Source of the DNA: Minisyncoccota bacterium
GTDB taxonomy: Bacteria > Patescibacteriota > Minisyncoccia > Minisyncoccales > Minisyncoccaceae
Assembly (NCBI GenBank): GCA_028704755.1
Contig: JAQWEU010000002.1
Coordinates: 1 to 64,000, forward strand
Direction: 5' to 3'
Length of the DNA: 64,000 bases
The notes under the pieces were generated by a model, which searched no databases, was not told where the DNA came from, and saw nothing but the letters and a program-made list of their open reading frames with translations. Positions 1 through 19,335 of this stretch are shown here, in pieces; within the stretch, counting starts at the first letter, position 1, and the number at the start of each line of letters is the position of its first letter. Both the position numbers and the translations under genes were made by a program.

Positions 1-1231
1 GGTTATAGAGCACTTATCTCCTTCTGGCGTGCAGTCTGGAAGTATTCCTGCATTAGAATCAGTACTAGGAACATCCTTGTCTAATCCTAAGAGAGTTACT
101 TCACAATATTTCAGCTGGACCGTCTTGACCCTTCCTTCTACTTCTGCCCCTTCTTCAGAACAGGAAGTATTGTTATAAATATATAATTTCACCTTCATGT
201 CCTTGAAATAGTTCTTATCCCTCTTATAGATCGTTATATAATTCATCTCTCCCCCTAACTTGCTCAATCTCTCATCATTCCTGACACTTGGGATATCCTT
301 ATTGAATGCTGCACATTTTCCTATTATGCTGTCATCTTCTTGGGCTGCGATTCCGAAATAATCTATCCCTTCAGCTTTTTTCGAATTCACTATGTCGATC
401 GAATTGACATTGTCCTTGTAATTCACTAGGTCCAGATTCGTATATGTTCCCTTTAGGCGCAAGGGGAGATAGAGGTACGGAGTATAATTATCCTGTTCAT
501 AAAGAAGTGCCCCATCTACCTTATCGAGTATCACCAATCCTGGATTATCATTATACTGATCAGGATTCTTCGGATCCCTCTGTCCATTTCCTCCTAATAA
601 AGGAACATTGATGGTAACCTCTTCTCCAGGCTTCAAGGATTGGGAATAATCGTCATTATTCGGATTATCTGCATAGAACACCGTTGCCGGCCCACCATTG
701 AACCCTATCACAGCCTGTAATCCATAATACTTCTTTATTGTCAATTTCCCATTATCTTTTATATCCTGGTTGGGAATGGTCATCTCCACTGTTCTTATAG
801 TCTTCTCCGGTTCAGTTTCAGTTTTTGGCTTGATGATCTCCTTCAGGATACAGGATTGCATCTTAGCACAGTCACGCTCTACTATATCAGTAGGAAAATC
901 GCTATTTATCGTTTTCAGGATCAATAGAGGAGAAAGTAATACTGCTAGCCCTACGATAACTCCTATCAGATCGTTCTTCAGTTTCGAAAAAGCCGCTGGG
1001 CTGCCCCCAGAGGTCAGGAGATCTAATCCAGAAAAGGTTACCTTCACGACAGCTATGGCCACTAATACTGCCACGATCAATGCATAGAAATACGTAGCAT
1101 AGTTCTCAACAGTGCTCTCATCGGTCAGAGGACTTATACCAGGGAGATCAAGATAAGTAACAGCAAATACCCGATCCAGGCAGATCGCAGAAAATATTGC
1201 TATTGATAATAGATAATATCTTTTATGCATC
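1..1231 (-). CDS. Partial (runs off the window edge) secreted/membrane protein with an N-terminal signal peptide plus two hydrophobic helices (pilin-like module) and a large extracellular domain. Not in the ORF track because it has no stop within the window
   Basis: Manual translation of the minus strand from ATG at 1229-1231: MHKRYYLLSIAIFSAICLDRVFA... then TM YFYALIVAVLVAIAVV and TSGGSPAAFSKLKNDLIGVIVGLAVLLSPLLILKTIN. The frame stays open to position 1 (>400 codons). It sits 17 nt from the upstream gene stop, so it is operonic. Confidence 0.5.
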
Positions 1232-1247
1232 GTGTTTCTCTTATATA

Positions 1248-2015
1248 TTATTTCGTCGTCTGTTGTCTTCCCGAAGTGCAATAGAAATCATCTACATAAG
1301 ACTGTTTTCCGATTGCCTTCTGGCATCCAGCTAAAAGATTCATATTCCTTTCACACATCTCCTTCTCTATCTTCTTCATATACTCAGCATTCAGAGGAAA
1401 ACAATTAGGTCCGTTCTTATTGACAGGGTAGGGGAATTCAGGAGTAATCCTATAACCCTGGGCATTTGTCGCTGTCATTCCTTCCTGGCATCCGAATAAT
1501 CTTATCTTGGCCAGATTTTCCTTATACGCAGCCCTATAACCTGTCACGCACTTGTCCATCTTCATCCTCGTAGTAAAAAGCCAATCGAGCAAAGCCATCC
1601 TGCTTTCATCAGCTCTATCATCAAGACTGTTCTTCGGATTTTCCTGAGAATCATAATAAGGCCTCAATTCTTCAGCAATCATATAAGTCTTCAATCTCTG
1701 CCTCCAAAGATCGATCTTCTGGATTATTCCTGGATTTTCAAGCCCCTCTCCTCCGATACAATAATTTCCTCTTCCTCTTATCTTGTTTATCGATATCCAG
1801 TTCACGTGCTCCATTGATTTGTACAAAGCGAATTGTTCTCCTAATATCTTGGTATAAGGACAAGAGAACCAGGTTTCAGTAGTATTAATCAACGAACTAT
1901 GATCATATATAGCCCCTATGACCCGCCTCTCAGTCATACCCGCTTCAACGAAAAACACAGGTGCTAAGCATAGTAATATTCCTAAATATATGATTTTTGT
2001 CTGTTTTATGATCAT
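1248..2015 (-). CDS. Secreted hypothetical protein (N-terminal signal/TM, Cys-containing)
   Basis: 255-aa ORF with hydrophobic N-terminus IIYLGILLCLAPVFFVEA. It lies 11 nt downstream of the 1363-aa gene, so it is in the same operon. Confidence 0.5.
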   Translation of the reverse strand: MIIKQTKIIYLGILLCLAPVFFVEAGMTERRVIGAIYDHSSLINTTETWFSCPYTKILGEQFALYKSMEHVNWISINKIRGRGNYCIGGEGLENPGIIQKIDLWRQRLKTYMIAEELRPYYDSQENPKNSLDDRADESRMALLDWLFTTRMKMDKCVTGYRAAYKENLAKIRLFGCQEGMTATNAQGYRITPEFPYPVNKNGPNCFPLNAEYMKKIEKEMCERNMNLLAGCQKAIGKQSYVDDFYCTSGRQQTTK

Positions 2016-2026
2016 TTATATATTCC

Positions 2027-18300: not shown

Positions 18301-18867
18301 GAAAAAGAATACATTGAATCATTGAAAAAGCCAGACACTGGCAATATCAACAAGTTCCAAGCCCTTGAACAGTCTAATAATCCTAAACTCAAGAAAATCC
18401 CAGAACTTTATGAAGAAGCTATCGGTAAGCTTTTCGAAAGGACATTTTCCTTCTCTCTTCCTGAAGGTATGACACCTGATTTCAGTAAGAAACCTGTCGA
18501 TTCATATAGTAAAGGGAATATCTTAATAGAAGAATATGCAGTAAAGAATGAGGCAGGAGATAACCTAGTTTTCGCTATGGCTAAGGATGGACAAGGAAGA
18601 GTATACATAGACGATATATATGACCCAAGAGTCGGTACGAACGACTACGGAGGCCATGATAAGATCTGCCAGATGGGTCACTTAGTATTCAAGCCAGAGG
18701 ATTATACTACTCAGACTTTTGGAATTCCAAAAAAATACAAAAAGCCTATATTAGATAAGGATGGAAAAAGAACTGCATATACAGATATTAATGATTTCTG
18801 GGGAAATATTCCTATTATTAAGCAATACAAGGAAGAATTGGAAAAGAGGGATAATAAGAAAGCTTAA
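15328..18867 (+). CDS. Giant (1179 aa) acidic K/E/P/T-rich repeat protein with a single central Gly-rich TM segment. T4SS-associated, function unknown
   Basis: Central hydrophobic segment AIIGAALIGLSVAIPPVGGAALLTGGAISGFLPVELGMATKVIGGAAGGFLI (~aa 590-640). Internal direct repeats: EGIPTPT... x2 (~15690/15810), KxWxEKDExFER x2 (~16075/16225), and a ~79-bp near-identical repeat at 17362-17440 and 17521-17599. Confidence 0.6.
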   Translation: MANYETNNNAGENRIAGKIPENDGNDIEREEVFEFLERYSVPIEEISSIIDKGRNDESIKEFLNSNNDFKTSKGSLKKIIAEETASEEKIGSEKKIPSELDAIYRKALQEIRGQEDQLTSDEGIPTPTENDGQETIIGTPTQEETLVFNTSEGPLEYAQTTEGIPTPTKINEKETIIDTPTENITTDEISLENQVPAPDKQETPAPKTEVESSIEPPLSRIYIKKIDVNKVEELPTKSSEIKIKIPSPKKDWEEKDELFERTDLPHIEDISEDNLYKMTNEALEKSSEKRGNTIPTPPEKTWKEKDEFFERPNLAGTKNESKKNQAIKDEKESKDDQELELLQSLNEKRILSCKELREAEADFDKDPTIENQERIDEAVKGYEAAYSSYGKNLNRLASELKTTPSALHKENLVRQEKKTQEDLNKSTEKTLPQEEGEKTESIEKKEGIIESEGEKTEPGIEHIEPEKVTNPKPIGIRWEEISEPPLPEQPINTKEEEKKTAPEIKPIIMKEKSGPEVKIINIEPKIIEEEKAEEPEETVETKRTYLNIGYEKKKDSITFFIGLKKKEIEEKKESLGKNKKELFNKLINIAKDKRTQAIIGAALIGLSVAIPPVGGAALLTGGAISGFLPVELGMATKVIGGAAGGFLIRKMIEKANKDKENSEKKSSDETKDIKKDGKGSEEESVPAPENKKIETIPEQKKDDKKKTPETIITENKKNEKAPEKTMKTEEKGSEEEGIPVPENKKIETIPEQKKDDKEKEIVTPKEVIENNVNLRINKNLENIKENIDKQPISVQKMFPEMKDKFESSITVDGKEFMFANISKNKVMALVKDSENSGKWKTRFFRYSESDHQWKVLPGKKPSGIDSKGEESNELHHYVQSAKIDKNIYKEIEKLSKKNNYDFEKYIPKEKDLKNSGGQFEDELEFKENHLELKNPVWKEFQKNLQGSFRAYNSLIIDNSAKWTDNYNFIENYSSKADDFKKLKEAIDIARNEKEYIESLKKPDTGNINKFQALEQSNNPKLKKIPELYEEAIGKLFERTFSFSLPEGMTPDFSKKPVDSYSKGNILIEEYAVKNEAGDNLVFAMAKDGQGRVYIDDIYDPRVGTNDYGGHDKICQMGHLVFKPEDYTTQTFGIPKKYKKPILDKDGKRTAYTDINDFWGNIPIIKQYKEELEKRDNKKA

Positions 18868-18879
18868 AGTTTTAAACAT

Positions 18880-19335
18880 ATGGAAAACAAAAATCAGGAA
18901 TATCCAGATTTCATAACTAGCGAAGGGCCATTGAAAGAAGTAACAAAGGAAAGGATTGAAATCAAATCAGACAAGAAAGAATCCTTGCCTCGAAATCCTA
19001 ATAATGAAAAATTCGAGCAATTGAACCAATTGAGCCAGAAGATCCAGAACATGCGCAATGAAATGACTTCTTTTCCAGACCTACTATCGAAATTCGGACT
19101 ATCTCCTAAGGCTGAAAACAGGGCTCAGATGAACGAGGAGTTCCGAAGACTGACATCTGAATACCAGACACTGAAAGAGTCTCTTAGGAACCCGTTTAAC
19201 GATGTTATAAGCTCGAAGAAGGAAGAGATCGATGCTAAGGAAGCCAGTCTTTATCCTGAGAAGAAATCTCTATTCAAGAGACTGAAGGAATTGTTCGTCC
19301 TTAAGACTCCTTTCAGATCTAAAGATGTTGCATAA
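18880..19335 (+). CDS. Hypothetical cytoplasmic protein (151 aa), last gene of the operon
   Basis: ORF 12 nt after the giant protein. Followed by a strong terminator. Confidence 0.45.
   Translation: MENKNQEYPDFITSEGPLKEVTKERIEIKSDKKESLPRNPNNEKFEQLNQLSQKIQNMRNEMTSFPDLLSKFGLSPKAENRAQMNEEFRRLTSEYQTLKESLRNPFNDVISSKKEEIDAKEASLYPEKKSLFKRLKELFVLKTPFRSKDVA

Follow-up and report, generated by a model that had tools for sequence, protein, structure and literature searches.

Here we examine a type IV secretion system (T4SS)-like locus that occupies positions 1 to 19,335 of a 64,000-nucleotide stretch of DNA from a Minisyncoccota bacterium (assembly GCA_028704755.1, contig JAQWEU010000002.1; the whole stretch is referred to as the window). 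An initial annotation of the window had proposed a non-conjugative, T4SS-like chromosomal locus beside oriC; all of its open reading frames (ORFs) were present where it had placed them, and the proposal itself is upheld by the VirB4 and PrgI matches described below and by the dnaA/rpmH context. Rather than the two operons recognized at that stage, the genes form four transcription units arranged as two divergent pairs, with terminator-like hairpins between the convergent units and at the right-hand boundary (Table 1). The distance from the end of the locus (19335) to rpmH is ~1.65 kb, which agrees with the earlier figure of ~1.6 kb, and the adjoining origin region contains five clustered DnaA-box-like sites (21427..21538) as well as the minimum of the cumulative GC skew (~20-22 kb). 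The GC content of the locus is that of its flanks. Domain scans (Pfam, NCBIfam) covered every ORF of 1..19335 and the large ORFs in the remainder of the window; statements on the left flank rest on the orthologous genome of Minisyncoccus archaeiphilus PMX.108, the window's own locus being cut at position 1. Exact-sequence look-ups with the 255-aa protein and the giant described below gave no contig, and the one with VirB4 gave only a 15.7-kb Logan contig contained in the window.

With 377 bits, the ATPase encoded at 13443..15224 passes the curated cut-off of 325 set for NCBIfam NF045971, the model of VirB4-like conjugal transfer ATPases of the CD1110 family, in a match that spans model positions 182-733 of 752. 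It also matches the Pfam families P-loop_TraG (3.7e-29), AAA_10 and CagE_TrbE_VirB (22.2 bits, cut-off 21), aligns with residues 225-772 of PrgJ from the Enterococcus faecalis plasmid pCF10 (E 9e-44), and carries a Walker A motif, GSGKS (14190..14204), together with the motif DEAW (14817..14828). The NF045971 score and the PrgJ alignment rule out another ATPase of the FtsK/HerA type, the possibility against which the initial annotation had set its assignment. That annotation had, however, drawn virB4 as one gene at 12685..15224. The DEAW-bearing VirB4 stands, but its presumed N-terminal portion is a separate TrsD-like ORF: 12685..13431 closes with TAA, and the next ORF begins at 13443 in a different frame. 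A frameshift or sequencing error was considered and rejected, since the two-gene layout of TrsD-like gene plus virB4 is kept in 68 related loci and such a split has been described (PMC12102498). The TrsD-like protein matches NCBIfam TrsD (1.6e-5) and VirB4_plasma, the VirB4 model of Mycoplasma integrated conjugative elements (ICEs; 6.8e-10), aligns with PrgJ residues 46-136, and fills positions 2-117 of the CD1110 VirB4 model (3e-6), the N-terminal part that is missing from the VirB4 ORF. Judged from these alignments, 12685..13431 is a detached N-terminal domain of VirB4. Comparison with PMX.108 gives identities of 96% for VirB4, 89% for TrsD, 82% for Jag, 79% for the 255-aa secreted protein, 75% for PrgI, 67% for YidC, 66-73% for the 1363-aa giant, 64% for RnpA, 57% for the SPFH protein and 56% for the VirB6-like protein; for DnaA, the highest identity among the fetched loci (~88%) likewise lies below the value for VirB4. 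Sequence identities of this order indicate that the VirB4/TrsD pair is under very strong constraint, which is unusual for a 'secretion' ATPase. We rejected the converse idea that fast-evolving surface parts are a special signal, as the VirB6-like and SPFH proteins fall barely below YidC and RnpA.

Two further membrane components accompany the ATPase. The small protein at 12263..12679, which has two or three hydrophobic segments and had been called VirB3-like, retains that reading with a PrgI (PF12666) match of 29.8 bits, above the gathering cut-off of 27. The polytopic protein first placed at 6570..8732 and called VirB6/TrbL-like also keeps its assignment, though its start is rather the ATG at 6582 preferred by gene callers (716 aa) than the TTG at 6570 (720 aa). 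It has a signal-like N-terminus, at least five hydrophobic segments, and a ~380-aa hydrophilic C-terminal half that is Gly-rich and then K/E-rich, as in VirB6 proteins of the 'extended' type. Precomputed matches to PF19590 (TrbL_3) exist for the identical database protein, where the match is flagged 'weak', and for most of 78 homologues, while PF04610 (TrbL/VirB6) is matched at 1.7e-8 by two homologues that are tied to the query at up to E 8e-32. A search of PDB sequences with the VirB6-family profile returned nothing meaningful. On the strength of its homologues we accept 6582..8732 as VirB6/TrbL at the family level, with the caveat of a null comparison with PrgH of pCF10 that is taken up below.

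A further component emerged from the 1363-aa protein at the left of the locus. This protein had been noted as a Cys-rich secreted giant, a description that its 42 Cys residues and signal peptide bear out, but its N-terminal VirB2-like pilin module had been missed. From N- to C-terminus it consists of the signal peptide, the pilin module (aa ~1-125; 5744..6118), a Cys-rich region of ~850 aa, a beta-sandwich (aa ~973-1113; 2780..3202) delimited from an AlphaFold2 (AF2) model, and a C-terminal domain of ~190 aa (aa 1171-1363; 2030..2608). Following the signal peptide, two hydrophobic helices split by a short polar loop lead to a near-invariant 'INP'; the hydrophobic segments lie at aa 36-54/56-74 and 90-108, and G71, G97 and 'INP' are kept in the module alignment. 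Across the family, 31 of 34 N-terminal modules match PF18895 (T4SS_pilin), the best at 7.2e-11; the ORF at the window's edge does so at E 5.6e-4 over aa 48-107, and its PMX.108 paralogues at 2.3e-5 to 8e-3. An independent pilin-module hidden Markov model (HMM), built without sequences from the window or from PMX.108, recognizes the giant at E 8.6e-22 and the edge ORF at E 2.3e-21. Because the modules match PF18895 so consistently and the independent HMM finds the giant itself, we regard this protein as a fusion of a VirB2-like pilin module to a very large ectodomain and not as a canonical pilin, which would be small and free-standing (mature length ~70-120 aa). A seed HMM collected 44 pilin-module proteins of 123-1496 aa from 74 loci, mostly above 300 aa; only two measured 123-131 aa, and the related fusion proteins span 275-1496 aa.

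The ectodomain of the giant is of uneven distribution. Its Cys-rich part (aa ~130-970) is restricted to ~13 close homologues and has no confident AF2 model, and 13 full-length homologues of the whole protein were found. The model of aa 164-1363 has a mean pLDDT of 45.8 and is usable for the last ~390 residues only; a Foldseek search with it gave generic beta-sandwich and LacZ sugar-binding-domain matches (TM-score 0.06) that we judged uninformative, and a PDB sequence search with the giant returned nothing meaningful. The C-terminal domain, by comparison, occurs in 6291 cluster representatives at E<=1e-3 and in 2156 at <=1e-30. Its 150 best matches are 52-67% identical and carry it nearly always at the C-terminus, the minimal form being a membrane anchor plus the domain. 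No model for it was present in Pfam or NCBIfam, nor was a structural neighbour found in the PDB.

Table 1. Genes and other features of the T4SS-like locus and the adjoining origin region (positions in the window).
Feature	Position	Strand	Remarks
Edge ORF	starts 1230, runs off position 1	minus	translation; 5' part, 410 aa
255-aa secreted protein, 9 Cys, without known domain	1248..2015	minus	
1363-aa giant	2027..6118	minus	
130-aa small membrane protein, first gene of pilin-fusion operon	6122..6514	minus	kept in 32 related loci
VirB6/TrbL-like polytopic protein, 716 aa	6582..8732	plus	in 51 loci
172-aa acidic protein, no transmembrane segment, no domain; co-transcribed with VirB6-like gene	8743..9261	plus	in 31 loci
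Terminator-like hairpin, bidirectional, between convergent units	9268..9289		
SPFH/Band-7 protein, 526 aa, membrane-anchored	9280..10860	minus	in 43 related loci
150-aa membrane protein, three transmembrane segments	10857..11309	minus	
265-aa protein, first gene of ATPase operon	11448..12245	plus	in 55 loci
PrgI/VirB3-like small membrane protein, 138 aa	12263..12679	plus	in 63 loci
TrsD-like protein, 248 aa	12685..13431	plus	in 68 loci
VirB4 ATPase, 593 aa	13443..15224	plus	
1179-aa acidic repeat protein	15328..18867	plus	
151-aa charged protein, probably coiled-coil	18880..19335	plus	only in two closest relatives
Terminator-like hairpin, bidirectional; right-hand boundary of locus	19341..19358		
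jag, yidC, rnpA, rpmH (20985..21128), dnaA (21627..22982)	19366..22982	minus; dnaA plus	replication origin region

Several of the other genes recur with those above. The 265-aa protein is encoded in one stretch (11448..15224) with PrgI/VirB3, the TrsD-like protein and VirB4, and is counted with them in the cytoplasmic-membrane core. Its family combines a kept helical N-terminal domain of ~105 aa, a variable Pro/Glu-rich linker and a kept C-terminal DxY(K/R)E motif, and has no transmembrane segment; the protein had no domain match in the Pfam and NCBIfam scans. The SPFH protein matches PF01145 with 33.1 bits (cut-off 23.6; E 7.5e-8). Its gene is positioned between the VirB6 and VirB4 units and is kept there in the related loci that carry it. 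The 150-aa membrane protein that precedes it had an alternative GTG start giving 171 aa, which is an over-extended form because a perfect sigma-70 consensus promoter, TTGACA-17-TATAAT, lies at 11353..11325 on the minus strand. A promoter-like TAGACA-17-TAAAAT with an extended TG lies back-to-back with it on the plus strand (11358..11386; the pair spans 11325..11386), in a divergent region of 76-138 bp between the membrane/SPFH unit and the ATPase operon. This arrangement suggests co-ordinated divergent transcription of the two units.

The 1179-aa protein has a different standing. Its earlier description as acidic and repetitive with a central hydrophobic region remains valid (21% D+E; one or two transmembrane segments at aa ~596-650, followed by a ~430-aa C-terminal globular part), but its inclusion as a part of the system does not, since it is a lineage-specific insertion between virB4 and jag and not a core component. 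By local tblastn, no more than two or three close relatives have it; its C-terminal ~430 aa are common only to PMX.108 and one other locus, and four loci have the hydrophobic region only. In most loci virB4 and jag directly adjoin or have pilin-module genes between them. A homologue search returned only the protein itself, the candidate list being filled by low-complexity words, and neither a known domain (Pfam, NCBIfam) nor, for the C-terminal part, a meaningful PDB sequence match was found. The database entries PHW52_00540, PHW52_00550 and PHW52_00590 are identical to the giant, the VirB6-like protein and the 1179-aa protein, respectively.

A scan of species-representative genomes with VirB4 yielded 74 loci, nearly all of them named Patescibacteria, Paceibacterota or Minisyncoccales. 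When the proteins of the fetched loci were clustered, a recurrent order became apparent: one or more pilin-fusion genes and the 130-aa protein (minus), the VirB6-like and 172-aa proteins (plus), SPFH (minus), then the 265-aa protein, PrgI, TrsD and VirB4 (plus), a variable slot, jag, yidC, rnpA and rpmH (minus), and dnaA and dnaN (plus). The best VirB4 match came from M. archaeiphilus PMX.108, a close relative of the Minisyncoccales genome that carries the window; the PMX.108 locus is found where the chromosome record ends and adjoins dnaA (AP038758, about 1,507,858-1,537,346). Gene order is identical to that of the window from the pilin-fusion operon to rnpA, whereas the surface and membrane parts are only 56-73% identical, the acidic protein has 1096 aa, and the giant (MNSN_01240) has 1494-1496 aa with one duplicated beta-sandwich unit. 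The PMX.108 operon comprises a 127-aa membrane protein, the giant, the 255-aa protein and pilin-module proteins of 487, 517, 875 and 350 aa, and beyond it lie ksgA, a LysM-Peptidase_M23 gene and a dksA/traR-type gene. Pilin-module proteins thus number two in the window and five in PMX.108, and the edge ORF has its orthologue in the 487-aa protein (15274..16737 of locus L076; 56% identical). In the ectodomains of the 517-, 875- and 350-aa paralogues (L076 15274..21989) we observed, by eye, motifs like the beta-gamma-crystallin Greek-key signature [YF]xxxxYxG, for example VYSDKDYKGE, GYSEKNYNGS and FFSDADYKGE; Pfam gave no crystallin domain.

The initial annotation had left two options, a minimal non-conjugative system or a continuation to the left of position 1, and each is partly true. 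If PMX.108 is a guide, the locus continues leftward with three more pilin-fusion genes, that is, with pilin-domain surface proteins followed by ksgA and the LysM-M23 gene, and not into genes for a type IV coupling protein (T4CP) or relaxase. No domain of a T4CP (VirD4), relaxase, VirB1 or VirB8/9/10 was found in the ORFs of 1..19335 or the large ORFs of the remaining window, as had been noted before, and no T4CP, relaxase or integrase domain was found within 10 kb to the left in PMX.108. Nor did any ORF scanned contain a domain of VirB11 or of the VirB7/VirB9/VirB10 outer-membrane core. A phmmer comparison with 14 pCF10 transfer proteins, PcfC and PcfG included, matched PrgJ/VirB4 only. No cell-wall hydrolase domain was present in 1..19335; the LysM-Peptidase_M23 gene of PMX.108 stands just past the operon end, beyond ksgA. 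The earlier impression that the locus is not on an obvious mobile element holds: window scans found no integrase domain, and the synteny on the oriC side is fixed across dozens of genomes, among which VirB4 diverges by up to ~40%. Because origin synteny is fixed, composition resembles that of the flanks, and integrase, relaxase and T4CP were not found, these features argue for a vertically inherited core system and not a mobile element.

Taken together, the part list, its conservation and its position lead us to propose, with a probability of roughly 0.7, that the locus encodes a non-conjugative envelope machine of MPF_FATA origin that would assemble or display host-contact proteins. In diderm systems, VirB2 inserted in the membrane is dislocated by VirB4, pili are assembled at the VirB6 platform, and the set of B2-like, B3, B4 and B6 proteins constitutes the inner-membrane part of the pilus-biogenesis machinery. 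As the gene set found here is this same set, an assembly role fits better than DNA transfer. In the mechanism that we envisage, pilin-module proteins would be inserted in the membrane by Sec/YidC with the ectodomain outside; a VirB4 hexamer, tethered by VirB3 and TrsD, would act with VirB6 to extract the pilin modules and then to polymerize or present them. The outcome would be a fibre or surface array showing variable Cys-rich and beta-sandwich, adhesin-like domains for host contact, so that the machine would serve in interaction with the host and not in conjugation, perhaps with a second role as a macromolecule conduit. The 1179-aa and 151-aa proteins would be recent lineage-specific additions. 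A more specific version is offered only tentatively: the pilin may have become a portable N-terminal anchor or polymerization module on variable ectodomains of 300-1500 aa, with VirB3/TrsD/VirB4/VirB6 as a dedicated extraction and assembly motor building an adhesin-decorated fibre or array that recognizes the envelope of an archaeal host.

Several observations weigh against this proposal. The giant itself scores 13.6 bits with PF18895, for which the gathering cut-off is 26.6. The window's own VirB6-like protein has no match in the local Pfam copy, its family profile reaches a probability of <1% against pCF10 PrgH by hhalign, and the family HMM does not match the 779-aa polytopic protein of a related Pontibacillus locus. 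VirB8-like and VirB1-like components were not recognized in the window. A canonical helical VirB2 pilus may leave no room for an ectodomain of 300-1300 aa on each subunit, and polymerization is purely inferred. Finally, a T4CP may be encoded elsewhere in the genome, which is reported to be common in Patescibacteria (PMC12102498), and substrate translocation may accordingly be the main function.

Translocation of effectors is the foremost of the other explanations, though we consider it improbable. Here the T4SS core would export soluble proteins or toxins into an archaeal or bacterial host, and the pilin fusions would be adhesins or a conduit only. The likeness of the B2-like/B3/B4/B6 set to the inner-membrane part of diderm pilus biogenesis speaks against this, as does the finding of no candidate effector, chaperone or T4CP in the locus, even though surface proteins adjoin the core. 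Effector export has nevertheless been speculated upon for Saccharibacteria in published discussion (PMC11665869, PMC10633639), and effector systems that lack a T4CP, such as Ptl and Brucella VirB, are listed in a review (PMC12857230). Somewhat less probable still is an uptake machine that, like ComB or Ced, would import DNA or macromolecules from the host for an auxotrophic epibiont. Uptake has been raised as a possibility for Patescibacteria (PMC11665869, PMC12857230), relaxase and T4CP are lacking here as they are in ComB, and VirB4 weakly matches the archaeal DNA-import ATPases CedB (3.5e-10) and CedD (2.4e-7). These last matches, at 39 and 30 bits, fall far short of both the respective cut-offs (700 and 600) and the CD1110 score, which points to a shared ATPase fold only, and no ComEC-like channel or DNA-binding protein was found in the locus. 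That the locus is a remnant or cargo of an ICE, still or once mediating DNA transfer, is very improbable: its closest VirB4 relatives outside the Candidate Phyla Radiation do reside on plasmids and ICEs of Bacillota and Actinomycetota (28-34% identity), the same module order occurs on a Pontibacillus replicon and a pilin-like model that matches there derives from Mycoplasma ICEs, but relaxase, T4CP and integrase were not found, the oriC-side position is fixed across dozens of genomes, VirB4 is more conserved than its housekeeping neighbours and composition is like that of the flanks.

The function of the patescibacterial T4SS has been called 'completely unknown' (PMC11665869), though the system is essential in the one species tested, and the locus described here belongs to the same lineage as the sole patescibacterium with a valid description, a parasite of an archaeon. 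PMX.108 has been cultured and lives as an obligate parasite on the methanogen Methanospirillum hungatei (PMC12281837); among the proteins secreted by PMX.108 and PMX.50, those with a T4SS-pilin domain show some of the highest expression (Kuroda et al. 2024, PMC10936435). The 1363-aa giant with its paralogues and the 255-aa secreted protein are candidate host-recognition molecules, and if our proposal of a display machine is true, a T4SS has been repurposed for surface display in cross-domain parasitism. The extraction and display of pilin-anchored adhesins by VirB4 and VirB6 is a testable idea in the pairing of M. archaeiphilus and Methanospirillum, and the C-terminal domain of the giant, abundant and without family annotation, is a structural and functional target in its own right. 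Apart from the locus, the right half of the window encodes further large secreted proteins, at 32126..34468 (780 aa, PG_binding_1 and T2SS-T3SS_pil_N), 44581..48087 (1168 aa, PG_binding_1), 48781..52284 (1167 aa, no domain) and 55257..59345 (1362 aa, two lamin-tail domains); in PMX.108, secreted proteins with peptidoglycan-binding domains also show some of the highest expression (PMC10936435). A 334-aa protein at 35991..36995 (DUF4846, E 4.5e-102) appears unrelated to the locus.

The initial annotation had called for a comparison with T4SS-like loci of Patescibacteria/Saccharibacteria and with Gram-positive ICEs. The MPF_FATA prototype pCF10 resembles the locus in its PrgI-PrgJ pair, PrgJ aligning with both the TrsD-like protein and VirB4. 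It differs in that its PrgJ is a single fused protein, in the presence of the hydrolase PrgK, the VirB8-like PrgL, the T4CP PcfC and the relaxase PcfG, and in having LPXTG adhesins in place of pilins. Helicobacter ComB and Bordetella Ptl are alike in working without a coupling protein or relaxase, according to a T4SS review (PMC12857230), but they are diderm and possess an outer-membrane core of VirB7/9/10, which was not detected in the ORFs scanned here. In a plasmid database the best VirB4 matches outside Patescibacteria were all from monoderms, at 28-34% identity. The locus of the top match, in Pontibacillus sp. ALD_SL1 (NZ_CP062975, 351,801-361,354; an 898-kb replicon), shares the order of pilin-like genes, polytopic protein, small protein, TrsD-like protein and VirB4. 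It has two pilin-like genes, the 779-aa polytopic protein, a 116-aa protein, a TrsD-like protein (E 2e-20) and a VirB4 that is 33% identical (E 1e-122). The pilin-like proteins match the patescibacterial pilin-module HMM at ~1e-16 and the NCBIfam model of the Mbov_0395 family (pilin-like) at 4.4e-11; the Mycoplasma ICE counterparts are Mbov_0395 (pilin-like) and Mbov_0397 (VirB4). Since this module has VirB2-like pilins, such pilins are not unique to Patescibacteria among monoderms. The Pontibacillus locus differs in its free-standing pilins (145-151 aa), in an M23 peptidase of 1050 aa encoded after virB4, and in not being situated at a chromosomal origin. The Pontibacillus megaplasmid or chromid is typed as 'non-mobilizable'.

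The closest comparison is with Patescibacteria themselves. The system described here is the published chromosomal, relaxase-less patescibacterial T4SS, and a T4SS beside the origin is not new. In Southlakia epibionticum ML1 the T4SS (SEML1_0006-0019) is essential by transposon sequencing, and its cluster is reported to include pilin subunits and neither a coupling protein nor a relaxase (Wang et al. 2023, PMC10633639); epibiotic growth of this species is described as requiring the system (PMC10633639; PMC12857230). The 2025 survey relates the patescibacterial VirB4 clade to MPF_FATA with TrsD as the most frequent companion, reports PrgI/VirB3, VirB6 and VirB2-like pilins, often in arrays of 2-11, with relaxases nearly absent, and places the locus of Paceibacteria and other classes near dnaA, dnaN, rnpA, rpmH and ksgA (Quinonero-Coronel et al. 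2025, PMC12102498), and a review from the same year mentions 'extended VirB6' proteins with large hydrophilic domains (PMC12857230). Against S. epibionticum and the survey as described there, the window is alike in its monoderm VirB4, separate TrsD-like protein, PrgI/VirB3, VirB6 and PF18895 pilins, and in a chromosomal position near dnaA/rnpA/rpmH with no relaxase or T4CP nearby; it differs in that no lysozyme or peptidase stands directly downstream of virB4. The text of the T4SS papers does not cover the pilin fusions to huge ectodomains in Minisyncoccales, their C-terminal domain, the SPFH protein or the 265-, 172- and 130-aa genes, and an SPFH scaffold as a part of T4SS loci is not mentioned there. 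Whereas the proteins of pilin arrays in Saccharibacteria have been described as small (PMC7427843), the module here forms the N-terminus of proteins of 300-1500 aa.

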